A DNA stretch of 64,000 nucleotides from Candidatus Methanomethylophilaceae archaeon. GTDB lineage: Archaea > Thermoplasmatota > Thermoplasmata > Methanomassiliicoccales > Methanomethylophilaceae. This document shows positions 7,686 through 50,031 of the stretch, piece by piece (the first letter of the stretch is position 1; each line of letters begins with the position of its first letter). Under the pieces are notes generated by a model. The model was not told the DNA's origin, did not search any database, and saw nothing but the letters and a program-made list of their open reading frames with translations. The position numbers and the translations under genes are program-made. The DNA is taken from the NCBI GenBank assembly GCA_050950505.1, contig JBMNHS010000001.1, positions 32,001 to 96,000 on the forward strand, read 5' to 3'.

Positions 7686-8280
7686 GCCAGCGGGCCATTC
7701 TCAATTCTTCCGTGGTGTTTACGTTCACCGCCAGATCGATGCAGGAACATTTGTAGAAACTTTCCTGAAGATAATCCCCGTCAATGGTTCTTTGCCGGTC
7801 CATGATGTTTATTCCCGACATTACCCAGAACTTACCGCCAAGGTTTATCGTGTACGAAGGGGTGATTCCGAACCTTCTGATGGATTCTTCGTCAACCACG
7901 GCAATCATGGATTCCATGTCGGGTTTGAAGGCGTTTGTTATTCCGTCTATCACGTTTGTTGACAATAAAGGTAAATCAGACGGCGACGTCAGAACGAACT
8001 CCGAACTCATCAGTTTCAGGGACGAGTGGAGATCGTCAACATAACTGTCGCCGCTGGTTTTTATGGTTTCATAACCCAGATCGTTGAGATACATCTCCGT
8101 TTGCGGAGTGTTGGAACTTACTGAGATCAATATCGAAGATATGTTTTTCGAGGCTTCCAACGCCGAGATTACATGCATGACCGTCGGTTTCCCTCCGACG
8201 GTCAGCATGGGTTTCTCTATGCCGTTGTTCAGCATCCGTGTGCCTTTTCCGCCTGCGTTTATCAATGCTTCGAATCTCAT
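7669..8280 (-). CDS. cobY: GTP:adenosylcobinamide-phosphate guanylyltransferase
   Basis: AGGKGTRM..EKP, SDLP, NVNT; cob operon context. Confidence 0.88.
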   Translation of the reverse strand: MRFEALINAGGKGTRMLNNGIEKPMLTVGGKPTVMHVISALEASKNISSILISVSSNTPQTEMYLNDLGYETIKTSGDSYVDDLHSSLKLMSSEFVLTSPSDLPLLSTNVIDGITNAFKPDMESMIAVVDEESIRRFGITPSYTINLGGKFWVMSGINIMDRQRTIDGDYLQESFYKCSCIDLAVNVNTTEELRMARWLTEFP

Positions 8281-9473: not shown

Positions 9474-9489
9474 TTCAACACCTCCTGCC

Positions 9490-10599
9490 TCATACTTTAG
9501 TATTTTTTAAGATTGAGACACCCTCGGCAAGACCTTCAACAATCCCTCCGAGAATATATCCTGCCCCCTTGATTTTAAATGGGCGTTTATTATATATCGG
9601 AGACTGAACATTTATATCTGTTTGTCCTGAAACTGATTTGCAAATCTTTATTTTCAAAGTATTGGCTATATCTTTGGACACTTCATCCATCATGGATTGT
9701 GCATCCAACTCGATTTCCCCCGTCAATCTTTCAAAAATAAGATCGGCGGAAACAGCAAATTGGGTCATATTTGCGACATCGCGGTTATCGGTCAATCCGT
9801 CAAGAATTTCATCCAATCCGATGTTGTCATTTTTATCGGAACCGAAACATCCGGATATGTATCCGATCAGCATATCTTTGGAAATTCCCGCTTCGGCCAG
9901 AATATCCAGATAATTTCCGTGGGCATTGTCTCCGCGTTTTATCAGCGAGTCTCTCACATGGAACTTTACGGCTCTCGCCATGGCGATGCCCAACGGAGTT
10001 CCGGTGCCGGAATACGGCTCCCTTTCTTCCCCCGCGGGGGATATGATTGCCATTGAATCGGAAGTGGTCCCCGTTTCTTTGTAACCGAAAGATGCCAATG
10101 CCGCAGATTTGGCTTCGGTTATGGCTATCATGATGTTCACTTTTGCAGCCTGGGTCAAAGGCACCGGCGATACGCCGATGATATTTATCGTCCCTGCCAG
10201 AGCCGCACTTCTTCTTTGGGAAAGTTTCGATCTTCTTTCCCAGTCTTCAAGAACGTCGCCTGCGACTACCTGGTTGCTGAGTCCCGCGGTCACCGCGGCG
10301 AACACTTCGATATCCTCGAATTTTTCCGTTCCGTGGCTAAAAACATGTTTGACTTCCGCCGCGGTCATGAGACCGACGGAAGTGTCCGGAAGTCCCATGG
10401 CTTTGCAGGCCTGTCCGGCGTAGGAGAACGGATCGTCATGCATGAAATTCTTCGGAACCTGCATTACGAAGACCGTGTCCGTGCGTCTGTCTCCGCCGTT
10501 GAATATGGCCGAGCTCAGTATTTCCATTTCCTCACCGAGTCTGATGACCGCAACATCATACCCCTCATAAGTCAGAATTTCGCATTTCGGTATTTTCAT
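9490..10599 (-). CDS. cbiZ: adenosylcobinamide amidohydrolase with C-terminal CobZ-like remnant (CbiS-like)
   Basis: LSSA.FNGG, GLMTAA, TAGLSN, GTINI, TEAK, TGTTSDS; start placed after a GGAGG SD with an ATGA overlap. Confidence 0.88.
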   Translation of the reverse strand: MKIPKCEILTYEGYDVAVIRLGEEMEILSSAIFNGGDRRTDTVFVMQVPKNFMHDDPFSYAGQACKAMGLPDTSVGLMTAAEVKHVFSHGTEKFEDIEVFAAVTAGLSNQVVAGDVLEDWERRSKLSQRRSAALAGTINIIGVSPVPLTQAAKVNIMIAITEAKSAALASFGYKETGTTSDSMAIISPAGEEREPYSGTGTPLGIAMARAVKFHVRDSLIKRGDNAHGNYLDILAEAGISKDMLIGYISGCFGSDKNDNIGLDEILDGLTDNRDVANMTQFAVSADLIFERLTGEIELDAQSMMDEVSKDIANTLKIKICKSVSGQTDINVQSPIYNKRPFKIKGAGYILGGIVEGLAEGVSILKNTKV

Positions 10600-11618
10600 T
10601 TCAGAACCTCCGCAATCCATTCGATTCCTTTTACGAATAGGTCTTCAAAATATATCTGTACGTGAACCCCGAGGAAGACAAACAACGGCACCGTTACAAG
10701 AATCATGAACAGCACGGATGAAAATTCCACCAGTCTGAGACATCTTCTGATATCTCCGCAGCCCGGGAACCGGGCCTCTTTGTTTATCGTGTATGAATTT
10801 TCTTTGTCCATTTTTATACCCAGTGCTCCGGCGGCGGCGGCCATCGGATATCCGCTGTTCGGACTTGCCGTGACTTTGTTGTCTTCTTTGGTGATTTTCC
10901 ACGAATTCCGCCAATCCATACCCAGAATCGCGGAACCCAGAACAAGGAACAACGCGGATATGCGGGAAGTCAGGAATCCCAATATGTCATCCAGTATTGC
11001 AGGGAATTTTCCCAATTTTTCATATTTTTCGTTCCTGTATCCCCACATGGCATCCATGAGGTTGGCACACCTGTATATGAAAGCCCCCGGAATACCCAGC
11101 AGCCCCATGAAAAACGTCGGGGTGCAGACACTGTCGGCGTAATTCTCCGATATCGTTTCGCAACATGAAGACGCTATGTGCGCCTCGTCCATGCCTTCGG
11201 TGTTCCGACTTACGATCATCCGAACTTTGTCCGCGGCATCAACGGTGTTTCCGTTTTCAAGATCGGAACAGACAGGTTCGCAGTGTTTGTTGAAAGAGAA
11301 TATCGCAAAAGTCAATTTCAGTATGAATGCCGAAGATATTGTCCAGAGGATTTTTCCGTAAGGATCCGGAACGTATGTTCTCAGTACCGCGGTCATTGCA
11401 ATCGCGATGCCTCCGAACAAAATTAAAATGAACAGATAGGATAGGAAACCCAGAACCGTTGCGTAATTCCCGTCGCGCTTTTTCAGACGTTTGTCTATCC
11501 CTCCGAGTATGTTTCCCATCCATCTCAGGGGATGGTACCTGTTCGGAAATTCGCCTATGAACCTGTCAATAAGTATAGCCAGTATCACAATCAGAATCGC
11601 TTCCGACCACAGAGGCAT
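10596..11618 (-). CDS. cbiB: adenosylcobinamide-phosphate synthase
   Basis: GE.PNRYHPL.WMG, IVSR, ETISENYAD, YRCANLMDAMWGY, SPNSGYP. Confidence 0.93.
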   Translation of the reverse strand: MPLWSEAILIVILAILIDRFIGEFPNRYHPLRWMGNILGGIDKRLKKRDGNYATVLGFLSYLFILILFGGIAIAMTAVLRTYVPDPYGKILWTISSAFILKLTFAIFSFNKHCEPVCSDLENGNTVDAADKVRMIVSRNTEGMDEAHIASSCCETISENYADSVCTPTFFMGLLGIPGAFIYRCANLMDAMWGYRNEKYEKLGKFPAILDDILGFLTSRISALFLVLGSAILGMDWRNSWKITKEDNKVTASPNSGYPMAAAAGALGIKMDKENSYTINKEARFPGCGDIRRCLRLVEFSSVLFMILVTVPLFVFLGVHVQIYFEDLFVKGIEWIAEVLK

Positions 11619-11622
11619 GATA

Positions 11623-12741
11623 TTACCTCAGTGATCTCACGACGGATTCCGCCGCATCTATGAATTTTTTGTTGCGTTCACGGTCTTTGACGCTGTACCT
11701 GACATAGTTGTCATAAGGTTCGCCGAAAGATGCGCAGTCTCTGAGGGCAATGCCTTCTTTCTGCATCTTCAGGTTCACTTCGGAAGCTTTCATACCGAGA
11801 TGTTCCACAGGTCTGAAATAAAAGAAAGAATCGGAAACGTCGCCATGGGTAAAACCCACTTCCGACAGTCTTTTGTTCATGTATACGGATTCATTTGCCA
11901 TCATTTCCGCGGCATCATGAACATGATTCATACGTTCTTCGAGAAGAACCGTGGCTATGCTCTGTTCGGCATATCCCACGTTCCAGGTCATTCTTACCTT
12001 TTCCATTTGTGCAATCGTGTCGGGGTGACCGAATCCGAATCCTATTCTTATCCCCGGGATCGCAAAAGATTTTGTCAAAGACCCGGCAACCACCAGGTTC
12101 GGGAACCTGTCGACGTATTCCACACATGTGACGTCCCTGTACCCCGGAACCAATTCCAACAGTGTTTCGTCCAGAAACACCAAGACGCCGCTGTCCAGGC
12201 ATTCTTTGACGATTGAAAGTATTTTGTCTCTGGGTTCCACCCGGCCGGTGGGATTGTTCGGATTGCAGATGTACAGCGCCTTCGCCCCGACGATGTGTTC
12301 GGATACGTCTTCGGCATCCAATCTCAGATTGTTTTCAACCGACAGTTCCATATTTCTGACCGTTGCTCCGGCAATCCTGCATTGATGGGCATATTCGGCA
12401 AAAGAAGGTCTGGGTATCACCGCAACCTCGCCTTGTGCCAGAAAAGTATTCGGGAAATTCCTGATTATGTCGGAAGAACCCGCACCGACGGTTATGTTGT
12501 CGTGATTGACTCCGTAAACTTTGGAAATAGCGTCTTTGAGCACAGAACATGAATCGTCGGGATAGTGATCTATTTCAAATCCTGCCTCGGCCAATAATTC
12601 CGATATGTCGTCAGGCGGACCGAAAGGGTTCAGGTTGTGACTGTAGTCTTCCACGTCCTTCAGCATCCACCCCTGTCCTCCGTGCACGGTCTTCGGCAAT
12701 TCCGTCAATTCTTTGCGGACGGCCTCATCTGGGCTAAACAT
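11623..12741 (-). CDS. cobD: L-threonine-O-3-phosphate decarboxylase (PLP class I/II)
   Basis: HGG, DYSHNLNP.GPP, YPD, CNPNNPTG, SLTKSFAIPGIRIG; first gene of the cob operon. Confidence 0.85.
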   Translation of the reverse strand: MFSPDEAVRKELTELPKTVHGGQGWMLKDVEDYSHNLNPFGPPDDISELLAEAGFEIDHYPDDSCSVLKDAISKVYGVNHDNITVGAGSSDIIRNFPNTFLAQGEVAVIPRPSFAEYAHQCRIAGATVRNMELSVENNLRLDAEDVSEHIVGAKALYICNPNNPTGRVEPRDKILSIVKECLDSGVLVFLDETLLELVPGYRDVTCVEYVDRFPNLVVAGSLTKSFAIPGIRIGFGFGHPDTIAQMEKVRMTWNVGYAEQSIATVLLEERMNHVHDAAEMMANESVYMNKRLSEVGFTHGDVSDSFFYFRPVEHLGMKASEVNLKMQKEGIALRDCASFGEPYDNYVRYSVKDRERNKKFIDAAESVVRSLR

Positions 12742-12791: not shown

Positions 12792-12850
12792 CCATGCTCC
12801 GTCAAGCCATAGATAAGAATTCATAACCCTTAATCCATAACCCCGGATTG

Positions 12851-13816
12851 ATGAGTGATATAATCGAGGTCAGAGACCTCACGAGGAAGTTTTCGGTCCG
12901 CCGCAGTCCGGACAAAATAGCGGTGGACGGAATATCTTTCGATGTGAAAGAAGGAGAGATATTCGGACTCCTCGGGCCCAACGGAGCGGGTAAAACCACT
13001 ACGATAAAAATGCTTTCGACCCTGCTGTATCCTTCTTCGGGTTCCGCCAAAGTATTGGGTTATGACATTACCGACGAACGCACCGTCATGGATCTGAGAC
13101 GGAGAATCAATGTTGTCAGCGGCGGAGAAAGAGGATTGTACTACCGATTGACCGCCAGACAGAATTTGAAATTCTTTTCGGATCTTTACGGCATACCGAA
13201 AAATGAACGGGACATCCGATGCGACGAGTTGCTGGAATTGGTGGGGCTGACCCGGGCTTCCGACATAAGAGTGGAGGATTTTTCACGGGGCATGAAACAG
13301 AGACTTCACATAGCCAGAGCTTTGGTCAACGATCCCGAGGTTCTGTATCTGGACGAACCGACCATAGGATTGGATCCCGAAATTTCAAGAAGCATCCGGG
13401 ACATGATCAGAAAATTATCCGATTCGGGGAAAACAATCATTCTCACCACCCATTACATGTATGAAGCCGAAGAGCTCTGCGACAGAATGGTCATATTGTC
13501 CCAAGGCAAAGTGGTGGGCCGCGGAACCGTCGGGAAAATCAAAGACATGGTTTCCGACACTTCCGTGGTTCATATCCTCACCGACAAAGACCCCGCGGAA
13601 GCATTGAAAACACTTGAATCGGATTCGGATATCACCGGAATCATGACCTGTATGGTCGGAGGACGTTACGATACGAGATTCTCCTGTGTTTCCGGGACGC
13701 CGGATCCTCATGCCCACGAAGAAGCGTTCCGTCCTTTCGGAATCAGAACCATAGGGTTGGACGAACCCACTCTTGAAGACGCATACATACGGTTGACGGG
13801 CGGAGAACGGGAATGA
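12851..13816 (+). CDS. ABC-2 type exporter ATP-binding protein
   Basis: GPNGAGKTT, FSRGMKQR, LDEPT, TTH. Confidence 0.92.
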   Translation: MSDIIEVRDLTRKFSVRRSPDKIAVDGISFDVKEGEIFGLLGPNGAGKTTTIKMLSTLLYPSSGSAKVLGYDITDERTVMDLRRRINVVSGGERGLYYRLTARQNLKFFSDLYGIPKNERDIRCDELLELVGLTRASDIRVEDFSRGMKQRLHIARALVNDPEVLYLDEPTIGLDPEISRSIRDMIRKLSDSGKTIILTTHYMYEAEELCDRMVILSQGKVVGRGTVGKIKDMVSDTSVVHILTDKDPAEALKTLESDSDITGIMTCMVGGRYDTRFSCVSGTPDPHAHEEAFRPFGIRTIGLDEPTLEDAYIRLTGGERE

Positions 13817-14607
13817 ACGCCAGAGCCGTCACCGCAGGATTCAAACAGCAGGCGATTCAGTTCTTCGCGGATCCCCAGTGGATAATTCCCAGTCTGATTT
13901 CCCCTTTTCTGATGACCATGGTCATGATTTTCATCAGTTCCGGCGGTACGGCCATTGAAGGTCCCGTTGTTTTGCAGGCGGTTCTCGGCGGAGGGGTTCT
14001 GGGTATGTGGGCAAGTTCTTTGTTCTCCTCCAGTTCCAGCGTTTCTTTTGACAGGATCAACGGCACTTTCGAACCCATGCTGGGTTCCGGCACAAGAATC
14101 ATTTACGTCCTGGCCGGAAGATCTCTGTGGAGCACTCTCATAGGGTTGATGAATGCCTTCATAGTCTTCGCCATCGCCGAACTCATGTTCGGCACCGGAC
14201 TGAGTCTTGACCGGCCGTTCCTGTTCTTCCTGACCGTTTTGATGACCATGCTTTCGCTGTCCACGGTGGGGCTTCTTATCTCATCATTGTTCGTACTCAC
14301 CAGAAAAGGCGGCACGATAGCCACCGTATTGGAATATCCTTTGTATGTGTTCAGCGGTGCGCTGATTCCCATTTCCCTGCTTCCGGGTTGGATGCATCCC
14401 ATCTCTTACGTTCTGGGACCTTCCTGGGGGGTTGATGCGATGAAGTATGCCGCCCTTCCCGTGCACGAAGGATTGATGGGTATGAGCATCGTCGCCGATA
14501 TCGCAATCTGCATGCTTTTATCAATCGTAATGATTGTGATATCTTATTTTGTGATGCTGTACGTCGAACGCAAGGTTCTGGAATACGGAACCGCAACGAG
14601 GTATTGA
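13813..14607 (+). CDS. ABC-2 type permease
   Basis: about six TM segments, FSGALIP...LPGW motif. Confidence 0.85.
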   Translation: MNARAVTAGFKQQAIQFFADPQWIIPSLISPFLMTMVMIFISSGGTAIEGPVVLQAVLGGGVLGMWASSLFSSSSSVSFDRINGTFEPMLGSGTRIIYVLAGRSLWSTLIGLMNAFIVFAIAELMFGTGLSLDRPFLFFLTVLMTMLSLSTVGLLISSLFVLTRKGGTIATVLEYPLYVFSGALIPISLLPGWMHPISYVLGPSWGVDAMKYAALPVHEGLMGMSIVADIAICMLLSIVMIVISYFVMLYVERKVLEYGTATRY

Positions 14608-14608
14608 G

Positions 14609-15403
14609 ATGAGCGGCCCTCTGACCATAGTGGCAAGTGCCGCCAAGATGGACTTCCGATCCAAATTCGCCGTTGTCGGTCCTTTGATGAGACTGGCCGT
14701 GATAATGCTCACAAATCTGTTCAGCATGTACTTTTTCTTCCTGCTGGCATCCTATATCGGAAAATCCGATGTCACGCCGGATTACGTCATAATCGGAAAC
14801 ATGATTCAGAGCATAGCCACTTCCACACTGTATTCCACTTCCAACATATCCAACATGGAAAAACACACAGGTACGTTGGAACCGTTGCTGACCGCACCTT
14901 CCAGAATGTTTTACACCTTCTTCGGAAAATCAATCTTCGGGATACTGAACGGCATCGTCTCGGTCACGGTTTCGATATCTTTCGCCGCATTCGTCTTCGG
15001 CGTTGATTTCAGTTCCGCCAATCTTTCCGTGATTGCGGTCATAGGTCTGCTGACCTGTCTGTCCCTTACGGGAATGGGCATGGCCGTGGGAAGCGTGGGG
15101 CTGTATCTTAGAACATCCTCGATCATCGCAAGTCTGTTCAGTTACATCGGACTGTTGGTCTGCGGAGTGAACTTCCCCGTGTCTTACCTTCCGGGATGGC
15201 TGCAGATATTCTCTTACGCCATGCCCCTGACCTATGCCGTCGACGCAACAAGGATGGCGGTGGGCGGCGCGACGCTGTCCGCCGTCTCACAGCCTCTGAT
15301 GATCATGATCGTGCTGGGTCTGGTGTATCTGATAATTTCTTGGTTCATATTCAATCTGTTTGAAAAGATATCAAGGAAAACAGGAAAAATCGGGTCTTTC
15401 TGA
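14609..15403 (+). CDS. ABC-2 type permease
   Basis: EK.TGTLE.LLTAP, GVNFPVSYLPGW, PLTYAVDA. Confidence 0.85.
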   Translation: MSGPLTIVASAAKMDFRSKFAVVGPLMRLAVIMLTNLFSMYFFFLLASYIGKSDVTPDYVIIGNMIQSIATSTLYSTSNISNMEKHTGTLEPLLTAPSRMFYTFFGKSIFGILNGIVSVTVSISFAAFVFGVDFSSANLSVIAVIGLLTCLSLTGMGMAVGSVGLYLRTSSIIASLFSYIGLLVCGVNFPVSYLPGWLQIFSYAMPLTYAVDATRMAVGGATLSAVSQPLMIMIVLGLVYLIISWFIFNLFEKISRKTGKIGSF

Positions 15404-15931: not shown

Positions 15932-16929
15932 TTCTTCATTATATCGAAAACGTAAACGCTCATGGTGGGCGAATAAGTTTTCAGTTCCGAAGTACGGACA
16001 ATGGATATGTCATAGCCTCCGGCTTTGGCTTTTTCGGTGATGTTTGAAACGAAGTTGTTCAAATCCGTCCGCTCAAGGACTCTGTGAAGATGGATTGTCG
16101 CGCCGGATTTCGCGGATTTCAAAGCGGAATCAAGGAACTCTTCCGAAGATTGGGGGAGATTCATGATTATCCTGTCGGCGGGGGGAAGGTCTTTGATGAC
16201 TTCCCGTGCGTCGCCTATTATCGGAACGATGCATTCCGCATCGTTCAGTTCGATGTTCTTTTTCATAAACCGTTCGGCTTCGGGGTTCAGATCTATGGCG
16301 TAAACGATTTTTGGGAATGCGAGCTTTGATATGACCACGGGAAAAGGCGCCACCCCCGAAAACATGTCTATGACAGTTTCTCCTTTTTTCACTTCGAGAG
16401 CCGTTCTCGCCCGTTCCCCCGCCAAACGGGGATTGAAATAAACCAGGGAAGGATCGGTGGCTATCTTCGTGCCGAATTCTTTATGAACGGTTTCCGAAGT
16501 TCCCGTCCCGGCTATCTTTTCCAGTTCGCGGATTCTGAATTCTCCTTTGACTCCGTCGTCCAGCATCACGGCGCGGATGTTCGGAGAAGCTTCGATCATC
16601 GCCTCGCCGATGCGTTCTTTGTACGGCAAAAGGATATCTGTGAGTTTTATCAGCGCAATGTCGCCTATTATATCATAAGAGTTGGGCAGTTCTTCGGCCA
16701 ACCAATCGGGGAAATCCAGAACTTCTTTGTAATCCGCCGGGCGGATTACCTGTTCCTCCCCTTCGAATTCTTCGGTTCCGTATCCTTCGAAGGAATCGCA
16801 CAGAACGGGCATTATGAGGAAATCTCCGTCTGCGCGTATTTTGTACCGTCTGTCCAAAAGGTCCGCGTCAATGAGGCGGGCCCGGACGGATTCTCCCTCT
16901 TTCTTAGGAATCCGGATGCAGCGTGGCAT
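15928..16929 (-). CDS. trm5: Trm5/Met-10+ family tRNA methyltransferase
   Basis: YDIIGDI, GEFR.R, HKEFG, YFNPRL, DMFSGVAPF, MNLP; start uncertain (16929-16944). Confidence 0.85.
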   Translation of the reverse strand: MPRCIRIPKKEGESVRARLIDADLLDRRYKIRADGDFLIMPVLCDSFEGYGTEEFEGEEQVIRPADYKEVLDFPDWLAEELPNSYDIIGDIALIKLTDILLPYKERIGEAMIEASPNIRAVMLDDGVKGEFRIRELEKIAGTGTSETVHKEFGTKIATDPSLVYFNPRLAGERARTALEVKKGETVIDMFSGVAPFPVVISKLAFPKIVYAIDLNPEAERFMKKNIELNDAECIVPIIGDAREVIKDLPPADRIIMNLPQSSEEFLDSALKSAKSGATIHLHRVLERTDLNNFVSNITEKAKAGGYDISIVRTSELKTYSPTMSVYVFDIMKN

Positions 16930-17728
16930 ATTCATCGTCTTCAATGATCTCCTCGGGAGCTCCGGTGAAACGGACCAACGCGTAGGACTCCATAAAGTGC
17001 AGGTTGCCCGGCAGCACCAAAGTGCTCAGCGGAGATCCCACATCCCTTTCGAGAAGATCTCTCGGATAACCGGTAACGATTTTTTCATCGGGAGAACCGA
17101 GTTTGGAAGCCACGCATACAACAGTCTTTTCGTCAATCAGGCCTTCGCCCCATTCTTCTTCGCTGTCCAACAGCCATTCGATCGCTTCGTGGGCGGTCAT
17201 GTAGATTCCTTCGGGTTCTCTGATGTCCAGAAGAAGCATGGTGTGCAGTCCCCGTTTCTTGTTTTCAAGTATGTGGTCGTAAGGGGATTTGGGACGGTAT
17301 CCTCTTTCGTACAGCGGCAAAGTCACGGTGCGTCCGAATTTATACGGTTGGAGGCCCAAAGCCGCGGGACATGCCACGAACACGGAAACCCCATAGTATA
17401 TTTTTACGGGTATGTTTTCTTCGTAAGCCTGAATGCGGAGATCGACATGGGTGGTTGCCATCATCGTGTCTCCGGCAGTGACGAAGCCTACCTTCATCTT
17501 CTTGGCATCCTCTATTATTTCAAACTCTTCCTCGACCTGCGCCCGCTGAAGAAGTTCGATGGGCTTTCCGATGAGACTTTCTAACTCGCTCATATCGGCA
17601 CCGATCAATTTGGATGTGTAAAATTCAGCGTATATTTTGTCGCATTCCTTCAAGGCTTTCAACGCTTCAATGGTCATTCCGTCCGTGCCGCTCATTCCGA
17701 GTCCGACGAACACCAATTCAGAGGTCAT
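16904..17728 (-). CDS. dph5: diphthine synthase
   Basis: FVGLG, EFYTS, GD.M.ATTH, GLQPYKFG.TVT, GLHT.LLLD, LHFME. Confidence 0.93.
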   Translation of the reverse strand: MTSELVFVGLGMSGTDGMTIEALKALKECDKIYAEFYTSKLIGADMSELESLIGKPIELLQRAQVEEEFEIIEDAKKMKVGFVTAGDTMMATTHVDLRIQAYEENIPVKIYYGVSVFVACPAALGLQPYKFGRTVTLPLYERGYRPKSPYDHILENKKRGLHTMLLLDIREPEGIYMTAHEAIEWLLDSEEEWGEGLIDEKTVVCVASKLGSPDEKIVTGYPRDLLERDVGSPLSTLVLPGNLHFMESYALVRFTGAPEEIIEDDEYATLHPDS

Positions 17729-18010
17729 GAAATCCGGAGTACGCTTGTCTGATTAAAGGATTCCTAATTTCTTTCCGGCGGGATTCACAATTCACAATCG
17801 GAGTGATGTTTGTTTGTTCTGATGTTTCTGAGTTCAGTATACCTTTGTCGCCATTTGTTGGACATAATATATTTATATGACTTATTGAAAAAACCCATAT
17901 TCGATTCCATTAATCTACAAAATTAATACTATAATAATTGTAAAAACTCTAAAATTTAATTTCTTTATATATTAATCAACCAAAAAAATAGTAAATGAAC
18001 TTAAATTACT

Positions 18011-18027
18011 ATGGACATAGCATCCAA
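18011..18027. promoter_or_regulatory. candidate operator, TTGGATG-N3-CATCCAA type (ATGGACATAGCATCCAA)
   Basis: 11/14 match; 13 bp upstream of TATA TTTATATG (18041-18048) of the corrinoid-protein operon. Confidence 0.5.
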
Positions 18028-18098
18028 CCTCGAATTGTTATTTATATGCTGTAGAAAAATATAACATTCAGCTCTGAAAAAGAGCAGGAGTGAAAAAA

Positions 18099-18740
18099 AT
18101 GTCTAAGGAAGAAATACTGAATGATTTGAGTGATTCAGTAATAAATTACAAGCTAGACCTTGCAAAGTCTTCCGCGCAAGCCGCTCTGGACGCCGGTATC
18201 GATCCCGTATTGGCAATCAATGAAGGATTGGTAAGAGGAATGGGTGTCGTAGGCGACAACTACGAAGCGCGCAAAGTCTATCTTCCGCAGGTATTGGTTT
18301 CAGCCAATTGCATGTATGCAGGATTGGATATTCTGATTCCGGCCATACCTGTGGAAAGTATGAAAGATAGCAAAAAATGCGCCACGGCAGTGGTGGAAGG
18401 GGATGTTCACGATATCGGAAAGAACATCGTCAAGACCATGCTGACCGCCGGCGGATACGTGGTAACCGATTACGGAAAAGATGTTCCTCCGGAGACTATT
18501 GTCGAATCTGCGGAAAAGGAAGGCATCGAGTGTGTTTGCCTCAGCACTCTGATGACACCTACGATGGACAATATGAAGAAAACCCTGGATATCCTGAAAG
18601 AAACCGGTTACCGTTCGAAATGTTTTGTCACCATCGGAGGGCCCCCTACATCTCCCGACTTTGCGAAAGAGATAGGCGCGGATCACAGAGATACGAACGC
18701 CCAAAACTGTGTAAGATGGCTTAAGGAGGCCTGGGAATGA
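18099..18740 (+). CDS. methyltransferase-cognate corrinoid protein (MtaC/MtbC/MtsB family)
   Basis: GM..VG..YE...YLPQV cap domain, EGDVHDIGKN (DxHxxG), STLMT, IGG; SD GGAGTG. Confidence 0.93.
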   Translation: MSKEEILNDLSDSVINYKLDLAKSSAQAALDAGIDPVLAINEGLVRGMGVVGDNYEARKVYLPQVLVSANCMYAGLDILIPAIPVESMKDSKKCATAVVEGDVHDIGKNIVKTMLTAGGYVVTDYGKDVPPETIVESAEKEGIECVCLSTLMTPTMDNMKKTLDILKETGYRSKCFVTIGGPPTSPDFAKEIGADHRDTNAQNCVRWLKEAWE

Positions 18741-19828
18741 AAGAAATGACGCATACCGAAAGGGTAACTGCGTCCCTGAACAATGAAAAGGTAGACAGAC
18801 TCCCGGCCTATCCCATAGCATGCGGAGTTCTAAGAAAGTTCCTGGGAAACGGGGATATCACTTACAAAGAGTGGTGCGACAGTCCGGAATACTTTGCAAA
18901 ATCATTCTTGTTGGGCCAAAAAAAGTTCGGATTCGATCTTGCCATCGGCCTTATGGATCTGTCGGTTATGGCCGGCGATTTGGGTGCCGGAGTAAGAATG
19001 GATGAAGAGAACACACCCTTTGTGGAAGAACCCATCGTTCACAGTTTGGAAGACTATGAAAAGTTGGAAGTTCCCGACATAAAGAAGGGAAGGACCGGCG
19101 TATTGGTTGAGGGCACCAAACTCATCGCGGATTATCTTAACGGAGAAGTCGTAACGTCTGCTTTCCTGGAGGGGCCCTTGTTGGCACTCAGTCAGACCGC
19201 CGGTGCGGAAAGGCTGTTCATGGATATGTTCACCGAACCCGCACCCGTCCACAAAGCGATGGAAGTCGTCACTCAGTTCGACTCGGAGATTATTTCCGCT
19301 TTCGGAGAAACGGGAATCGAAGCAATTTGCTGGGACTATCTCTGGGGTAATTATGCAGTTCTCGGTGACGGCGAATATGCAGAGTTTGAGGTTCCGTACG
19401 CAACCAAACTAAACAAACAGACGGTGGATGACGGGATGGCTTTGACCATTCACAACTGTGCCGACCTGCCGCATCTTGATGTCCAGGTCAAACAGTACAA
19501 GCCTGCACTGTATTCCATGGCTTACTATCCGTTGATCGAAGAAAGTCCCAGTGCTTCAAAGGTCATAGAAGATGGATATGCCGATAACTGTGTCATCGGC
19601 GGAGTCATTGAACCGCAGTTGTTCATGAGAGGAACCGTTGAAGATACCACAAAAGCCACAAAGGAACTTTGCCAGGAAGTCAAGACTGCTTTGTGCAAGC
19701 GTGGCCTGAATTCCACATACTGTATAGCCACGGGATGTGAGATTCCTCCGGATGTCAACACCAAGATGGAAAACATCACAGCCATGATGGACGCCGTCGA
19801 AAAATACGGTCGCATGGATGATGTGTGA
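18737..19828 (+). CDS. MtaA/CmuA family methylcobamide methyltransferase (UroD fold)
   Basis: MTH.ERV, VDRLP, GPL, HNC and TGCEIP zinc ligands, ENI.AM. Confidence 0.88.
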   Translation: MKEMTHTERVTASLNNEKVDRLPAYPIACGVLRKFLGNGDITYKEWCDSPEYFAKSFLLGQKKFGFDLAIGLMDLSVMAGDLGAGVRMDEENTPFVEEPIVHSLEDYEKLEVPDIKKGRTGVLVEGTKLIADYLNGEVVTSAFLEGPLLALSQTAGAERLFMDMFTEPAPVHKAMEVVTQFDSEIISAFGETGIEAICWDYLWGNYAVLGDGEYAEFEVPYATKLNKQTVDDGMALTIHNCADLPHLDVQVKQYKPALYSMAYYPLIEESPSASKVIEDGYADNCVIGGVIEPQLFMRGTVEDTTKATKELCQEVKTALCKRGLNSTYCIATGCEIPPDVNTKMENITAMMDAVEKYGRMDDV

Positions 19829-19868
19829 ATCGGGTCTTGATAAATAAAAAACCTGCTAAACTATTTTG

Positions 19869-19914
19869 ACCCGTGTGACGCGGCGGATTCGCTCACCGCC
19901 CGCGTCCGACGGGT
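19869..19914 (+). other. strong intercistronic GC-rich hairpin
   Basis: ACCCGT..GACGCG.GCGG / CCGC.CGCGTC..ACGGGT pairing. Confidence 0.6.
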
Positions 19915-19939
19915 ATCTATAATATTGGGAGTGTCAAAA

Positions 19940-20254
19940 ATGCTAGGATATTACAATACGATGAAATCTAAAGGATTTTCATATAAAACCACGGCTTCGG
20001 TAAGGAAGTTCGAATGTCCGGTATGCGGATTTGAATTTTCTTTGGTGTATGCCAGAACCTTTGCTTGCCAAGGGTGTTCCGAAGCCTCCAAGGGTTGTCC
20101 CAAGGTCAGATGCAATAAGTGCGATCACGAGTTTTACATCAAAGACGTTACGGATGCCAAAGGCAAGAAGAATGAAAGAATTATGGCGGATCACATCTGC
20201 GATATCGTGAACAACCGCCACGAAGATATGGGGCTGTCGAGCTACAACAGGTAA
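19940..20254 (+). CDS. small Cys-rich (Zn-ribbon or Fe-S) protein
   Basis: CPVC..CQGC..GC.KVRCNKC; SD GGAGTG; stop lies 4 nt before the next gene. Confidence 0.75.
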   Translation: MLGYYNTMKSKGFSYKTTASVRKFECPVCGFEFSLVYARTFACQGCSEASKGCPKVRCNKCDHEFYIKDVTDAKGKKNERIMADHICDIVNNRHEDMGLSSYNR

Positions 20255-20258
20255 GACA

Positions 20259-22241
20259 ATGTCTCTCGGACTCGGGCTTGACACCGGCGGAACCTATACG
20301 GACGCAGTCATACTTGATTTGAAACGCGGAAAGGTTGTTCAAAAGGGAAAGGTTCTGACCACCAGACCCGATTTGATTACGGGTATAGGAAAGGTCATCG
20401 ACTCTTTTGACAAGGATTTGTTGCAACCGGTATCCATCGCTTCCCTTTCGACCACCCTTGCAACAAATTCCATCGTCGAAGGTCAAGGCTGCAAAGTGGG
20501 TTTAATCTGCATCGGCCGTGATTTCGACGATACCTTCCTGGCTGACAGATACCTCAGGGTTGACGGAGGGCACAACATAAACGGTAACGAAGTTATTTCA
20601 TTGGACAAAAATTCCATAAGAAATTTTGCCGAGGAAGTCAAAGATGACGTGGACTGTTTCGCAATAACCGGGTATATGAGCGTCAGGAATCCGGATCATG
20701 AATTTGCAGCGGCCGAAATCGTCTCGGAAACCGCAGAGAAACCGATAGTCTGCGGGTACCAGTTGTCCTCGATTCTTGGTTTCAAAGAAAGAACCGTCAC
20801 GGCCGTGATGAATGCCAAACTGATTCCGGTAATAGACAATCTCATTAGATCCGTCGGCAAGGTTCTTGCCGAAAAAGGATTGGACATTCCCATAATGATT
20901 GTCAAAGGAGACGGTTCAATGATGAGCATCGAAACTGCCAAAAAGAGACCGGTGGAAACTATTCTGTCCGGTCCTGCCGCAAGTCTTACAGGTGCCAGAG
21001 AAATGACGGGACTGAACGAAGCCGTTGTCGTCGACATGGGCGGCACCACCACCGACATAGGAATCCTCAGGAACGGTTTTCCATCAATCGACAAAGAGGG
21101 CGCTTTAATCGGATGTTATAAAACTCACGTCATGGCCGCTGAGATTTCGACTACGGGATTGGGCGGCGACAGCCGGGTTTTCCTCAACGGAAGGAAAATG
21201 AAACTCATGTCTTCCCGCGCAGTGCCTCTGTGCATCGCGGCTACCGCCTGGCCGGAAATTCTGGACGATTTGAAAGCCGCTGCGGAAAATATCGAAAAAG
21301 TACGGGAATCCATTGATGACAACCACGCCGTATCGGACATTGAATTCCTTACAGTTACCGGATCCTGCCCCGCCAATCATCTGTCCAGTCTGGATCGCGA
21401 TTTGATGAAATTGATATCGGAAAGACCCTACACGTTGAAGCGGGCGGGCGAACTCCTGGAAACGAACGTTCTGCAGTTTGACGTCCCCAAACTGGAAAAA
21501 AACGGATTGGTGCGGAGGGTGGGATTGACTCCCACGGATGTTCTGCATTCGGAAGGAAGTTACAGAGAGTACGATTACCAAGCTTCCGATTACGGAATCG
21601 AGTATTTTGCCAACCGGACCGGATTGGAAAAAAAGGAAGTCATTGCGAAAATCAAAGATATGGTCTGCAGCAAAATTTCCATGAGCATACTTTCAAAAGT
21701 CATAATGGACGAGACAGGCAGCACAGACTATTGCATGGTAGCCGAGAATCTTTTGGAAAAGGCCGTATCCGGAAACGGAGGAAAGGATTTCTCCTGCAAA
21801 ATCGCGTTGAACAAGCCCATAATAGGAATCGGCGCACCGGTCAATGCCTGGCTCCCTGATGTTTCGAAACGGTTGCACACCGATTTTGTCCCAATGGAAA
21901 ACTCCCAGGTGGGGAATGCGATAGGAGCCGTGTCCGGATGTATTCTGGAATCCATCGATATTCTCATCGAACCCCGAAAGATGAGTTCCTCTTCACAGAG
22001 TTCGTGCACTGCGTATTCAAAACTGGGGCGGTTTGCCTTCGACAGTGTGGACGAAGGGATAGCATATGCCAAATCCGAAGGAGGGAAATTCGTTGAAAAA
22101 TCCGTGATAAAGGCGGGAGCATCTTCGGTCAATGTGGTTTACGACATCAAAGAACGCACCTTCGAACAGGGCAACTCCACGGCGGTCATTGACATCGTGG
22201 TGTCGGTCACCGCCACGGGAAAGCCGAGACAGATGATCTGA
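20259..22241 (+). CDS. hydantoinase/oxoprolinase-A family (ASKHA-fold) protein
   Basis: GLDTGGTYTDA, STTLATN, RNPDHE, ER.VTAVMNA, SGPAAS, DMGGTTTD, GLGGDS, NAIGA. Confidence 0.88.
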   Translation: MSLGLGLDTGGTYTDAVILDLKRGKVVQKGKVLTTRPDLITGIGKVIDSFDKDLLQPVSIASLSTTLATNSIVEGQGCKVGLICIGRDFDDTFLADRYLRVDGGHNINGNEVISLDKNSIRNFAEEVKDDVDCFAITGYMSVRNPDHEFAAAEIVSETAEKPIVCGYQLSSILGFKERTVTAVMNAKLIPVIDNLIRSVGKVLAEKGLDIPIMIVKGDGSMMSIETAKKRPVETILSGPAASLTGAREMTGLNEAVVVDMGGTTTDIGILRNGFPSIDKEGALIGCYKTHVMAAEISTTGLGGDSRVFLNGRKMKLMSSRAVPLCIAATAWPEILDDLKAAAENIEKVRESIDDNHAVSDIEFLTVTGSCPANHLSSLDRDLMKLISERPYTLKRAGELLETNVLQFDVPKLEKNGLVRRVGLTPTDVLHSEGSYREYDYQASDYGIEYFANRTGLEKKEVIAKIKDMVCSKISMSILSKVIMDETGSTDYCMVAENLLEKAVSGNGGKDFSCKIALNKPIIGIGAPVNAWLPDVSKRLHTDFVPMENSQVGNAIGAVSGCILESIDILIEPRKMSSSSQSSCTAYSKLGRFAFDSVDEGIAYAKSEGGKFVEKSVIKAGASSVNVVYDIKERTFEQGNSTAVIDIVVSVTATGKPRQMI

Positions 22242-22283
22242 TCCCTTTTTTATTCGAATCTTAAAAGAGAAAGGTCAAGGGAA

Positions 22284-24313: not shown

Positions 24314-26407
24314 TCAAAGCAATGTGCAGAGAGCGTCGACGGCCCAACAGCCCTTGCCCTTCTTGTCGACCATGACCGGGTTGATTTCCAGTTCATGAAT
24401 CTCAGGGTTTTCAAGGGCTATGAGAGCAATTCTCTTGACAACTTCCTTAATCGCATCGATATCCGCAGGTTCGGTGCCCCTGGCACCCGAAAGAAGGGTG
24501 TATGCCTTTGTGGATTCGATCATCCGGTTCATCTGCTCTTCGGTCATGGTCGCGTGAGCCTGTGAAATCTCCGCCATGATCTCGACGAATATTCCTCCGA
24601 GACCGAAAGACACTATGGGACCGAACTGCTCGTCACGGATCATGGACAGAATGACTTCCTCTCCGGAAACCATCTGCTGCACGGAGACTCCGTCCAATCT
24701 TGCGTCGGGTACGGCGTTCTTGCAGGAAGCCATGATCTTTTCGTAAGCCTCTTTGGCTTCCTGATCGTTCTTGACTCCGACCACCACTCCGCCGACATCC
24801 GTCTTGTGCGCTATGTCGGGAGACAGAATCTTCATTACCACGGGATAGCCCATTTTCGAGCTTTCCTTTACCGCGTCCTCCGCGGTTATGACGGAAGCTT
24901 CTCCGGGAATGGGTATTCCGTAAGCCTGGAAAATCTTCTTGCCTTCGTTTTCGGTAAGGGTCTTTCTGTTTTCCTTCTTGGCGTCTTTGATGATTTCCGA
25001 TACCGTTTCCCTTCCGTTTTTGATCTTAGGGAACTTGATCGGAGTCTTGGGAATTTCTCCGCGGACGGTGAATCCTCTGAGAATGTCCAAAGCGCGCACG
25101 GCCCTGTCGGGTGTGGGGAAAGCGGGGATTTTGCCTTCTCTGAGGATGTCCACCGCAAGTTCGCACTTGGAACCGCCGGCGAAACAGACCGTGACGGGCA
25201 CGGGTATGTCGTCCCTCATTTCCACAAGCATTTCCGCCACCGCTTCAAGATCCGCAAAGTCCAGAGGCGAACCCATTATGACGATTCCGCCCACGCTTTC
25301 GTCTTTCAGAACAGCCTCGATTGCCGCCTTGAAGTATTCCGCCTTGGCGTCACCCCTCACGTCAATGGGGTTGGTAAGGCCGGCAAGGGTGGGAACGGTT
25401 TCCGTCAGAAGTTTGATTGTGCCGTCGGTGAGCTTTGCGGCTTCGACGTATTTGGCGTCGTGAGCGGCGTCCGCCGACATGACCCCCAATCCTCCGGCAT
25501 TGGTTATGATTGCTATGCCGTTCTTTTTCATGGGGCTGCAGGTGCTCAGAACACTGATTGCGTCAAAGAATTCATCGGCGTCTTTCGCTCTGTGGATGTT
25601 CAGTTTGTTGAAGATAACGTCATAGACTGAATCCGCACCGGCAAGAGAACCCGTGTGGGAAGATGCCGCCAGAGATCCGGCTTCGGTCCTTCCGGACTTG
25701 AACGCCACCAGGGGCTTGAGTTTGTCTATGCCCTCCAGAGCTTCCAAAAGCTCCGCGCCGTCGGTGATGCCTTCGATGTACATACCGATGACTTTGGTGT
25801 CTTTGTCATCGTTGAAATAAGGAATCATGTCCGACTCGCTCATGTCGCACTTGTTGCCGTAAGTCACAAACTTCGCTATGCCGAGTTTCTGACCGATGGC
25901 CCAGTCAATGATTGAAGATGCGAAAGCGCCCGACTGCGACATCATGGACACGTTTCCGACTCTGGGCATGTGATATGAGAATGTGGTGTTGACCTTCGCT
26001 TTGGGATTCAGAACGCCGAAACTGTTGGGTCCGAATATTCGGACTCCGTATTTCTTTCCGGCTTCCACAAGTTCGTTCTCGAGAATCTCGCCTTCGGGTC
26101 CGGATTCTTTGAATCCCGCGGTAAGGATACTTGCGTATTTCGTACCGGCTTTGCCCACTTTCTCGATCTCGGCGATTACGAACTTCGCAGGGACCGCGAT
26201 AACGGCCAAATCGACGGCTTTGCCGATTTCTTCAAACGAAGTGTATGCTTTCACGCCCTGTATGGTTCCGCCTCTCGGATTTACAGGGTACAACTCACCT
26301 TCGAAACCTGCGTAAATCATATTTTTAAGCAGCATTCCGCCTAGTTTTGTCTCGTCGGTGGACGCACCTATGATGGCCACCGAGTTGGGACTGAGGAAAT
26401 CACTCAT
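24314..26407 (-). CDS. acd: ADP-forming acetate--CoA ligase, fused alpha+beta
   Basis: SVAIIGAS, GPNSFG, SQSG, KSGRT..G..AASSHTG, TNAGG.G, NPIDV, ATP-grasp HKTDVGGV and ELEINP. Confidence 0.92.
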   Translation of the reverse strand: MSDFLSPNSVAIIGASTDETKLGGMLLKNMIYAGFEGELYPVNPRGGTIQGVKAYTSFEEIGKAVDLAVIAVPAKFVIAEIEKVGKAGTKYASILTAGFKESGPEGEILENELVEAGKKYGVRIFGPNSFGVLNPKAKVNTTFSYHMPRVGNVSMMSQSGAFASSIIDWAIGQKLGIAKFVTYGNKCDMSESDMIPYFNDDKDTKVIGMYIEGITDGAELLEALEGIDKLKPLVAFKSGRTEAGSLAASSHTGSLAGADSVYDVIFNKLNIHRAKDADEFFDAISVLSTCSPMKKNGIAIITNAGGLGVMSADAAHDAKYVEAAKLTDGTIKLLTETVPTLAGLTNPIDVRGDAKAEYFKAAIEAVLKDESVGGIVIMGSPLDFADLEAVAEMLVEMRDDIPVPVTVCFAGGSKCELAVDILREGKIPAFPTPDRAVRALDILRGFTVRGEIPKTPIKFPKIKNGRETVSEIIKDAKKENRKTLTENEGKKIFQAYGIPIPGEASVITAEDAVKESSKMGYPVVMKILSPDIAHKTDVGGVVVGVKNDQEAKEAYEKIMASCKNAVPDARLDGVSVQQMVSGEEVILSMIRDEQFGPIVSFGLGGIFVEIMAEISQAHATMTEEQMNRMIESTKAYTLLSGARGTEPADIDAIKEVVKRIALIALENPEIHELEINPVMVDKKGKGCWAVDALCTLL

Positions 26408-26566
26408 AGGGGGGTAAAAAATTTTGTTGTTCATATAAGTTCCTATATTAATCGTCGTAATCTTCGAGTTTCGGCGTATATTATGCGAATATCGTAGAAA
26501 AAAGCATGTTTTTTTGAAGATTTAATAAATTTTTTCGACAAATGATGTATATTTCGTAGTTTAACG

Positions 26567-37624: not shown

Positions 37625-37981
37625 ATGAGTACAGTGGTCGTTGACATGGCCCTTTGCGACAAAACCCACAAAATCACCGTTAAACTGAAAGAGGACGGAA
37701 ACCTCAGCCTGCACATCGCCACAGATTGTGAAAACATAAAAGAATACGCGAGGGTCCTGGGTGACACCCTGACCATCGCCGACGTGACCGATTGGATGAA
37801 CTCCAAGGTTTACGATCAAAAGAACTGTTCCGCCGCTTCCATAACCTGTTTGACTCCCGCGGGGATAATGAATGCCGCCTGGCTGGAATTGGGAATGATT
37901 TCAAAAACGAGAGCCGCCGATGTCCGGGCAAATTGCGTGAGATTCGTAAGAGAAGGCGAAGACAAGCTGATAGGCGAGTGA
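37625..37981 (+). CDS. small Cys-containing hypothetical protein (DUF6951-like)
   Basis: LCD....I, TDC.NI, C..P.G...A..LE.G; leaderless TATA at ~37596. Confidence 0.6.
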   Translation: MSTVVVDMALCDKTHKITVKLKEDGNLSLHIATDCENIKEYARVLGDTLTIADVTDWMNSKVYDQKNCSAASITCLTPAGIMNAAWLELGMISKTRAADVRANCVRFVREGEDKLIGE

Positions 37982-48943: not shown

Positions 48944-48953
48944 AGGTATCCGC

Positions 48954-50025: not shown

Positions 50026-50031
50026 TAAATT

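Follow-up and report, generated by a model that had tools for sequence, protein, structure and literature searches.

Why does an archaeal gene cluster for corrinoid-dependent methyl transfer end in an ATPase of the hydantoinase A (HyuA) type, with no HyuB gene to accompany it? The question is raised by a 64,000-nucleotide stretch of DNA from a Candidatus Methanomethylophilaceae archaeon (assembly GCA_050950505.1, contig JBMNHS010000001.1, here abbreviated C1), which spans C1:32001-96000 and is referred to below as the window. The genome from which it is taken is, by the names of homologues of its proteins, of the Methanomassiliicoccales type, 1.33 Mb in size, 99.6% complete and equipped with methyl-coenzyme M reductase (MCR). 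The cluster consists of four genes:

18099-18740, + strand: corrinoid protein gene, 213 aa from an ATG, with an alternative GTG at 18090, 9 nt upstream
18737-19828, + strand: gene for a uroporphyrinogen decarboxylase-type (URO-D) enzyme of the MtaA/CmuA family, 363 aa, with a 4-bp overlap with the preceding stop
19940-20254, + strand: gene for a Cys-rich protein, 104 aa, preceded by a 111-bp gap
20259-22241, + strand: HyuA-like gene, 660 aa, following the Cys-rich gene after a 4-bp gap

Rather than a stray hydantoinase, the HyuA-like protein is a member of a large subfamily, as yet uncharacterised, that travels with corrinoid methyltransferase systems in archaea and numerous anaerobic bacteria. 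This well-conserved accessory family is the finding, the system itself being of a known kind. By analogy with other accessory proteins, the HyuA-like protein may be dedicated to the ATP-dependent maintenance of one corrinoid protein, its cognate partner in an MtsAB-like system, a reading to which we give about even weight for and against. An earlier interpretation made from the DNA letters (the sequence-only reading) had proposed that the HyuA-like and Cys-rich proteins either (a) form an alternative activator of the corrinoid cofactor or (b) activate or open a methylated substrate. The link to corrinoid chemistry that it drew proves to be both real and general; the specific mechanisms that it proposed are not favoured.

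The four proteins and the company they keep

The HyuA-like protein belongs to the HyuA branch of the ASKHA fold. Pfam profiles recognise Hydant_A_N (PF05378, 106.4 bits) at residues 5-158 and Hydantoinase_A (PF01968, 106 bits) over profile positions 1-142 of 291 only; a match to MutL (PF13941, 28.4 bits) is marginally over its cut-off of 27, and GlmL (NF040745) scores 29 against a cut-off of 475. Both ASKHA phosphate loops claimed in the sequence-only reading can be located (DTGGTYTD, residues 8-15; DMGGTTTD, residues 259-266). An alignment of 82 homologues shows little or no variation in the phosphate-1, phosphate-2 and adenosine motifs, and no conserved cysteine. An AlphaFold model with a predicted local distance difference test (pLDDT) score of 92.1 aligns from end to end with A-type subunits, namely those of N-methylhydantoinase, caprolactamase and the acetone and acetophenone carboxylases (TMq 0.57-0.64). 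Sequence matches to solved structures in the PDB are confined to residues 2-320, and the C-terminal half is divergent and not recognisable by sequence as Hydantoinase_A. No RACo_C_ter (PF14574), Raco_middle or ferredoxin domain appears among the Pfam matches of the protein. The genome has one Hydantoinase_A gene, and the absence of HyuB (PF02538), claimed for the window, extends to the whole genome, where a search found no match.

The identities given to the other three proteins in the sequence-only reading are likewise borne out. The corrinoid protein combines a cap (B12-binding_2, PF02607, 68 bits) with a B12-binding Rossmann domain (PF02310, 80.5 bits), and its translation contains DVHDIG, an instance of the DxHxxG motif. 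It reaches no cut-off among the curated NCBIfam models, scoring 190 bits on TIGR02370 (cut-off 215.3), with the MtgC and MtbC models far under theirs. The URO-D enzyme is clearly of its family (PF01208, 162 bits) and is similarly under all curated NCBIfam cut-offs: PRK06252 gives 100.6 against 244, TIGR01463 91 against 235, the MtaA model 58 bits against 400 and the MtbA model 77 against 600. Three URO-D paralogues in the same genome exceed the PRK06252 cut-off, and among the genome's seven URO-D genes the one in the cluster has the lowest PRK06252 score, compared with 301-316 bits for the three canonical copies. It is about 21% identical to these canonical MtaA paralogues, and its orthologues bear in public databases only the name 'uroporphyrinogen decarboxylase family protein'. 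The pattern H239-x-C241...C334 is nevertheless invariant in an alignment with the six other URO-D paralogues of the genome (three canonical MtaA-type and three divergent) and one orthologue; these three residues we take to be zinc-binding.

The Cys-rich protein follows the pattern CPxC-x13-CxxC-x6-C-x4-CxxC, in which all seven Cys are invariant and His85 nearly so in an alignment of homologues. It matches no Pfam or NCBIfam family over cut-off, giving only weak zinc-finger-type matches that include a sub-threshold IBR match, and no ferredoxin signature was found in this Cys7His protein by Pfam, NCBIfam or alignment. Because paired CxxC motifs are typical of zinc ribbons, it is probably a zinc-ribbon-like metal-binding partner. 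This partner is specific to the archaeal order Methanomassiliicoccales: all the named ones among its 61 homologues come from Methanomassiliicoccales or Thermoplasmata, and the archaeal profile of the family has no match in the bacterial HyuA-like loci. A crude scan for Cys-rich open reading frames (ORFs) found a neighbour in 2/46 unfused and 0/32 fused bacterial copies; the scan is insensitive, since it recovered 12 archaeal cases against 28 by profile. A 131-aa paralogue (C1:625474-625869, - strand), 32% identical and with all seven Cys kept, lies amid lipid-synthesis genes (PcrB, UbiA), far from any methyltransferase gene.

How constant is the association within the order? The HyuA-like protein is matched in 142 of 151 genomes (E <= 1e-20), often in 2-7 copies, and HyuB in two; a place beside HyuB, apart from corrinoid genes, is thus not the usual one for homologues of the protein. 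In the 30 best HyuA-like loci, the window counted, the Cys-rich gene lies immediately upstream on the same strand in 26 and a URO-D gene lies inside the 1.5-kb flank in 21. When 40 larger regions are compared, the arrangement corrinoid > URO-D > Cys > HyuA-like recurs in several families of the order, sometimes with a CobW-type GTPase and a 157-aa protein of unknown function inserted and, in some regions, with a DUF1638 gene just downstream. Most of the order retains the window-type corrinoid/URO-D pair itself, down to members with genomes of 1.0-1.3 Mb. DUF1638 is present in 146/151 genomes, and because the HyuA-like protein, DUF1638 and RamA-type systems are all near-universal, the phylogenetic profile within the order is uninformative.

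In a FastTree phylogeny of 129 HyuA-like members the archaeal copies form one clade whose sub-clades track gene contexts. Nineteen leaves have corrinoid, URO-D and Cys genes within 5 kb, and several derived archaeal paralogues are without the corrinoid context. Two paralogue contexts can be described. The first comprises CobW, the 157-aa protein, the Cys protein, DGC-domain proteins and Fur-CbiM-CbiQ-ABC genes; at loci L097, L157, L161, L152, L155 and L168 the order is Fur-CbiM-(CbiN-sized ORF)-CbiQ-ABC(CBS)-HYU-DGC-DGC (HYU denoting the HyuA-like gene), alongside a convergent CobW GTPase, the 157-aa protein and the Cys protein, a cobalt- or zinc-handling context. The second (L153, L156, L158, L160, L162) comprises RamA, two URO-D genes, the HyuA-like gene, a 463-aa protein, a corrinoid protein and a radical SAM protein. 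The 463-aa protein matches no Pfam or NCBIfam family and could be an undescribed MT1.

The family extends well beyond the order. A HMMER search of 1.84 billion representatives returned 1052 HyuA-like proteins at E <= 1e-30. Among the 150 best representatives 16 are long forms of 915-959 aa, and all 16 carry an N-terminal DUF1638 domain (PF07796). Eighty loci taken from species genomes with these proteins as the query span Armatimonadota, Brocadiaceae, Desulfobacterota, Planctomycetota, Spirochaetota, Acidobacteriota, Chloroflexota, Bacillota (including a Sporomusa and an Anaerovorax), two alphaproteobacteria and some archaea. Neighbours within five genes on either side were clustered and named by a Pfam scan of cluster representatives, hidden Markov models were built and all ORFs, from a crude calling, were rescored; one cluster, 'u232', was dropped as antisense ORFs of corrinoid genes. 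The resulting count covers 132 HyuA-like ORFs at 121 loci, with corrinoid, URO-D, MttB, pterin-MT2, RamA and DUF1638 genes as the scored families and 6 kb as the limit of distance:

Archaeal copies, n=54: any scored family 41; corrinoid 39, URO-D 35, Cys 28, CobW 17, RamA 9, DUF1638 9
Bacterial unfused copies, n=46: any scored family 28; corrinoid 18, MttB 18, RamA 15, pterin-MT2 11, DUF1638 10
Bacterial DUF1638-fused copies, n=32: any scored family 10

As a baseline, when 2-kb positions are drawn at random from the genome of the window, 12.8% have a scored gene within the same distance. The co-occurrence with corrinoid and MtaA genes, which the sequence-only reading had offered as a check, is clearly positive. 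Typical bacterial orders are MttB-CORR-DUF1638-MttB-HYU-(GntR)-RamA and HYU-RamA-PocR/AraC-CORR, where CORR is the corrinoid gene, and RamA is the immediate same-strand neighbour in six loci (L078, L104, L113, L105, L159, L170). Hydantoinase_B is found in none of the 48 neighbour clusters with at least three members.

DUF1638 is fused to 32 of the 78 bacterial copies and stands alone as the immediate neighbour of the HyuA-like gene in six loci. Its alignment shows three invariant Cys, one His and one Asp (C11, H85, C116, D148, C149). A model of the genome's own copy (pLDDT 90.4) has no match in the PDB by Foldseek at E <= 0.001, and a wide VIA search gave generic alpha/beta matches only, the best of them, to lumazine synthase at Z 8.8, being within the common range. 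Genetic data exist for this domain: in Phaeobacter inhibens, according to passages of a preprint by Price et al. (bioRxiv 10.1101/192971), a DUF1638 gene beside a B12-binding protein gene is required, together with a RamA-like protein, for methionine synthesis. The phylogenetic profile of DUF1638 tracks that of RamA-like proteins, and in the same passages no function is proposed for it. In Ruegeria grown on N-osmolytes, parts of a 2025 PNAS paper (PMC12478193) report RamA and DUF1638 as more abundant.

No function was assigned to the HyuA-like family in the literature that was searched, although possible members have been encountered. In strain DCMF, portions of Holland et al. 2022 (PMC9768040) describe a 668-aa 'N-methylhydantoinase A/oxoprolinase' of unknown function inside an mtgB/C/A cluster, strongly more abundant on glycine betaine (log-fold change, LFC, -7.2), and draw a 'HydA' in homologous glycine-betaine clusters of other acetogens; the 668-aa protein is a candidate member of the HyuA-like subfamily. 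The literature also mentions the 'hydantoinases' MA4395/MA4396 near mtaCB2 of M. acetivorans, which might belong to the subfamily but, since that genome has HyuB, may be a classical pair.

A proposed upkeep of the corrinoid protein and the alternatives

What could such an ATPase contribute to a methyltransferase system? We propose that the four genes form an operon for corrinoid-dependent methyl transfer, conserved in Methanomassiliicoccales, in which the chemistry would be carried out by the cognate corrinoid protein and the divergent, Zn-type MtaA/MtsA-like methyltransferase, with the Cys7His metal-binding protein and the HyuA-fold ASKHA ATPase as accessories, not substrate enzymes. The ATPase would work with DUF1638, and beside, not instead of, a RamA/RACE activator. 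Its most likely job would be an ATP-driven upkeep of the cognate corrinoid protein, bringing its cobamide into an active state or keeping it there by activation, by (re)loading or by exchange of the cofactor. Gene content, motifs, fold, the lack of HyuB, the conserved synteny, the DUF1638 fusion and the co-location with RamA are observed; ATP hydrolysis, the corrinoid protein as target and the exact action are all parts of the proposal that we infer. If it loads or exchanges cobamide, the ATPase would have a parallel in the ASKHA reactivases that serve adenosylcobalamin enzymes.

Several arguments lead to this proposal. The family stands beside full MT1/corrinoid/MT2 sets with different types of MT1 (MttB-family, URO-D), which suggests a role on the corrinoid component that they share. 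The lack of HyuB, the variety of complete methyltransferase sets and the DUF1638 fusion and RamA adjacency together point to an accessory of the cognate corrinoid protein. Since the HyuA-like gene often lies directly beside RamA, its product is not simply a RamA substitute. The occurrence of multiple paralogues beside different systems, as for Ram paralogues, suggests cognate specificity. The synteny within the order, the family-wide neighbourhood counts, the genetics of DUF1638, the nearly invariant ATP motifs, the marginal MutL match, the abundance of the candidate DCMF protein on glycine betaine and, weakly, contigs from RNA libraries also speak for the proposal.

Several points weigh against the proposal. 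Its mechanism is an argument by analogy throughout. The HyuA-like protein is unmatched in nine of the 151 genomes of the order, including two single-contig genomes that are 98-99% complete, and DUF1638 is kept in all nine, so that the two are not strictly dependent on each other in the order. The genome of the window has one HyuA-like copy for about nine corrinoid proteins, and its DUF1638 gene is remote from the cluster. No recognised corrinoid gene lies within 6 kb of 22 of the 32 fused bacterial copies. Some paralogues are accompanied by CobW-type GTPases, DGC-domain proteins, CbiMQ cobalt transporters and Fur regulators, a setting that would fit metal delivery too. The neighbour families, moreover, were defined on the same loci in which they were then counted, and relatives are non-independent, so that the fractions given above are descriptive.

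A bolder form of the proposal is possible, although we advance it only tentatively and lean against it. The HyuA-like protein, DUF1638 and, in Methanomassiliicoccales, the Cys7His protein could make up an unrecognised ATP-driven machine that loads, exchanges or re-activates the cobamide of particular corrinoid proteins of methyl transfer, beside RamA, as a fifth component of many MttB- and MtaA-type systems in anaerobes, and the corrinoid/URO-D pair of the window could then be an uncharacterised entry route for methyl groups that depends on this machine.

Might the ATPase instead replace RamA? In that case the HyuA-like protein and a partner that binds metal, namely the Cys protein in this cluster and DUF1638 in other settings, would be a second, RamA-independent, ATP-dependent Co(II)-to-Co(I) activator for one corrinoid protein, much as reading (a) had it. 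The DUF1638 fusion has the 'metal-binding domain plus ASKHA ATPase' layout of RACo/RamA, the invariant Cys, His and Asp of DUF1638 and the seven Cys of the Cys protein could serve such a role, and the single HyuA-like copy of the genome does stand beside one particular corrinoid protein. The sequence-only reading had also noted the absence of MtaB, MtmB, MtbB, MttB and RamA. This holds for the window, where neither these families nor HyuB were found in the 55 larger ORFs scanned, but not for the genome, which has three RamA genes, MttB, MtmB and MtbB with in-frame TAG, and pyl genes outside it; 'no MT1, no RamA' is therefore true of the window only. MtmB and MtbB adjoin pyl genes and RamA at C1:3-16 kb, the closest RamA, MT1 and pyl genes being about 34-47 kb upstream of the cluster, and two MtaC-like loci are accompanied by RamA and a CobW-type GTPase. 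The presence of RamA near 15/46 unfused bacterial and 9/54 archaeal copies, and immediately adjacent in six loci, suggests complementary, not redundant roles, and P. inhibens requires both the RamA-like protein and DUF1638, according to the preprint passages cited above. The HyuA-like protein has no conserved Cys, the Cys pattern of its partner is of the zinc-ribbon type, and that partner is found in this archaeal order only. Reading (a) is weakened accordingly, and we consider a separate activator rather unlikely.

We find it equally hard to favour reading (b), in which the HyuA-like protein would open or activate a methylated substrate with ATP, as HyuA-type subunits phosphorylate lactams or ketones, and so provide the MT1-like step that the URO-D/corrinoid pair is missing. 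In fold the protein agrees along its full length with the A-type subunits; the operon lacks an MT1 of the classical kind, and no other URO-D enzyme of the genome is as divergent as the one encoded there. The related carboxylases also have a small Cys4 zinc-finger subunit, as sections of PMC5214803 describe. A HyuB-type partner, however, which holds the second half-chemistry in every characterised member, was absent from the genome search and present in 2/151 genomes of the order, and Hydantoinase_B is missing likewise from the neighbour clusters described above. A substrate-specific role does not predict complete sets with different MT1 families as neighbours, MttB-type in bacteria and URO-D in archaea, and the C-terminal half of the protein is not recognisable as Hydantoinase_A by sequence. 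Reading (b) is weakened by the company of these complete sets, and we consider substrate opening rather unlikely.

Delivery or maturation of a metal is a further alternative. The Cys protein and the HyuA-like ATPase would then place zinc into the URO-D enzyme or serve the supply of cobalt or cobamide. GTPases of the CobW/HypB/UreG family lie within 6 kb of 17/54 archaeal copies, as does the 157-aa protein (17/54), and DGC-domain proteins lie within that distance of 12/54, several paralogues having the Fur-CbiM-CbiQ-ABC-HYU-DGC order; a Cys7His protein suits metal binding, and the window is rich in cobamide salvage and uptake genes. Yet no CobW, DGC or Cbi gene adjoins the locus of the window, CobW is near only 1/46 unfused and 1/32 fused bacterial copies, and we know of no ASKHA or HyuA-type protein that acts as a metallochaperone. 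It is because of the CobW, DGC, Cbi and Fur contexts that we retain this alternative, as a very unlikely one.

That the adjacency is without functional meaning, the HyuA-like protein being a stand-alone kinase or ATPase of unrelated metabolism, is extremely improbable: 13/54 archaeal, 18/46 unfused and 22/32 fused bacterial copies have no scored family within 6 kb and several derived archaeal paralogues have lost the context, but that context is kept across archaeal families and in Desulfobacterota, Chloroflexota, Bacillota and Spirochaetota, DUF1638 is fused to the protein, and in the window the Cys and HyuA-like genes are 4 bp apart. Only remotely possible, too, is that the URO-D/corrinoid pair is a methylcobamide:homocysteine methyltransferase: a genome search with PF01717 and PF02574 gave no match, but MesB is assigned to Methanomassiliicoccales in passages of Price et al. 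2021 (PMC7857596).

The wider interest lies in the systems that such an accessory would serve. Corrinoid methyltransferases feed methanogenesis and acetogenesis with methyl groups from methanol, methylamines, quaternary amines, methoxylated aromatics and methylated sulfur compounds, and shape trimethylamine levels in the gut; their textbook parts are MT1, corrinoid protein, MT2 and the RamA/RACE activator. A further widespread gene family travels with them; its products have an ATP-binding fold, and its fusion partner, DUF1638, has already been linked by genetics to B12-dependent methyl transfer. Should the HyuA-like protein prove necessary for activity in vivo, this would explain why some systems are difficult to reconstitute or to express heterologously, and would offer a new handle on the gut methanogens that remove trimethylamine. 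The operon in the window is a compact and well-conserved example, whose four proteins can be tested jointly.

The locus and its genome

Are the four genes transcribed together? The features that bear on this point, and the genes on either side of the cluster, are as follows:

16904-17728, - strand: diphthine synthase gene, divergent from the cluster (dph5, TIGR00522, 260 bits)
17729..18098, no strand: AT-rich spacer of about 360 bp between the divergent dph5 and the cluster, the presumed promoter region
19829..19939, + strand: 111-bp spacer between the URO-D and Cys-rich genes, with an imperfect G+C-rich inverted repeat at about 19876-19910
22242..22262, + strand: T-rich stretch ccctttttTatt, directly 3' of the HyuA-like stop codon
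22284-24191, - strand: gene for a receiver-GAF-PAS protein, 635 aa (PF00072 and PF13185), convergent with the cluster

The arrangement given in the sequence-only reading, four co-directional genes behind a long AT-rich region, stands: all four lie on the + strand at the coordinates listed at the outset, and G+C is 25-31% over 17700-18149, compared with about 48-53% in the cluster genes. The ATG at 18099 is preceded, at a distance of 8 nt, by an AGGAG. In the 111-bp spacer a TATA-like 'ctataata' can be read just 5' of a GGGAG ribosome-binding site, and there is no run of five or more T in 19829..19939; judged by its sequence, this spacer is a possible internal promoter or RNA element. The T-rich stretch after the last gene resembles an archaeal oligo-T terminator. 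With a T-rich end after the last stop codon, and a hairpin and TATA-like element but no long T-run in the 111-bp gap, the four genes are most simply read as a single operon that may have an internal promoter. For environmental relatives, RNA-library contigs (Logan contigs from four metagenomic or metatranscriptomic runs; best word share 0.27) span the corrinoid/URO-D junction (18419-18884) and the Cys/HyuA junction (20004-20283; 19856-21139). They lend weak support to co-transcription, as a contig is not equivalent to a single transcript and carry-over of DNA is possible.

The receiver-GAF-PAS family is found within 6 kb of 10/54 archaeal HyuA-like genes, and its member here is a possible regulator of the cluster. 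Beyond it, at 24314-26434 (- strand), lies an ADP-forming acyl-CoA synthetase (534 bits on a 4-hydroxybutyrate-CoA ligase model and 488 on that for acetate-CoA ligase alpha, both under cut-off), and at 33659-37372 (- strand) a 1237-aa protein made up almost entirely of TPR repeats. DUF6951 (PF22263), a family of about 120 aa, occurs within 6 kb of 9/54 archaeal HyuA-like genes (including those at L135, L137, L140, L147, L166 and L116); the best copy of this genome is at 37625-37981 (+ strand) of the window, 15 kb downstream of the cluster.

The genome has ten B12-binding matches, and the window itself holds several sets of cobamide genes. At 6567-12741, 5 kb upstream of the cluster, is a lower-ligand and salvage cluster comprising a CobT-like phosphoribosyltransferase, a MobA/CobY-like nucleotidyltransferase, CobS, CbiZ, CbiB/CobD and a class-I/II aminotransferase (CobD-type); it is followed by an ABC-2 exporter at 12848-15403. 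Two BtuFCD-like uptake sets, each with periplasmic binding protein, FecCD permease and ABC ATPase, lie at 47750-50901 and 52831-56042. In the first of these the FecCD permease is in two overlapping ORFs (48954-49610 and 49543-50025), which cover profile positions 2-175 and 170-311 and thus point to a frameshift or a sequencing error. The single DUF1638 gene is about 465 kb from the cluster in an unrelated neighbourhood. At C1:617844-622172 a second RamA/RACo-type gene, with a Fer2 domain, adjoins a CooC/ParA-like ATPase and a CdhC-like gene for the ACS/CODH beta-subunit, the latter indicating that a piece of the acetyl-CoA synthase system is retained in this small genome.

Comparison with known systems

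How does the cluster compare with what is already known? The corrinoid/URO-D pair most resembles the MtsAB/MtpCA layout. MtsA/MtsB (methylthiol:CoM methyltransferase) and MtpA/MtpC of Methanosarcina likewise do without a separate MT1, each consisting of one Zn enzyme of the MtaA family and a corrinoid protein. The likeness is in this two-gene layout only, and the operon of the window has two added accessory genes. To our knowledge, no accessory genes like those for the Cys-rich and HyuA-like proteins have been described for Mts or Mtp. Pairs of the MtsA/MtsB type have been predicted in Methanomassiliicoccales in passages of PMC3814188 and PMC5011839, and might include the pair described here.

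For the ATPase, the HyuA-type subunits of N-methylhydantoinase, 5-oxoprolinase, caprolactamase and the acetone and acetophenone carboxylases are similar in structure, sharing Hydant_A_N, the first half of Hydantoinase_A by sequence, the fold and the ATP motifs. The protein of the window differs from these in having no HyuB in its genome and a C-terminal half unrecognisable by sequence, and in a context of corrinoid methyl transfer rather than lactam or ketone catabolism. Sections of PMC5214803 presume a structural role for the small Cys4 zinc-finger subunit of the acetone and acetophenone carboxylases; compared with this gamma subunit, the Cys-rich protein of the window has paired CxxC motifs, and its only Pfam match of note is the sub-threshold one to IBR.

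In context the HyuA-like family resembles RamA/RACE (RACo). Both have ASKHA-type ATP-binding, occur in corrinoid methyltransferase clusters and often have several paralogues, each beside a different system, and the DUF1638 fusion reproduces the same layout of Cys-rich domain plus ASKHA. In contrast, the HyuA-like protein lacks the RACo_C_ter, Raco_middle and ferredoxin domains, belongs to the HyuA branch of the fold and is found with RamA, not in its place. A similar tie to a B12-binding protein and a RamA-like protein is seen for DUF1638 in split methionine synthase and glycine-betaine systems, and this domain is fused or adjacent to the HyuA-like family; the window differs in having no DUF1638, the single copy of the genome being elsewhere.

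Finally, there is a likeness to proteins that service other B12 enzymes. MutL/GlmL is an accessory protein of B12-dependent glutamate mutase, and DdrA/PduG and EutA are ASKHA-type reactivases of adenosylcobalamin enzymes. GlmL/MutL, like the HyuA-like family, are ATP-binding ASKHA proteins, although the MutL match in Pfam is marginal. The clients differ: those of the HyuA-like family would be corrinoid proteins of methyl transfer, in place of radical mutases or eliminases.

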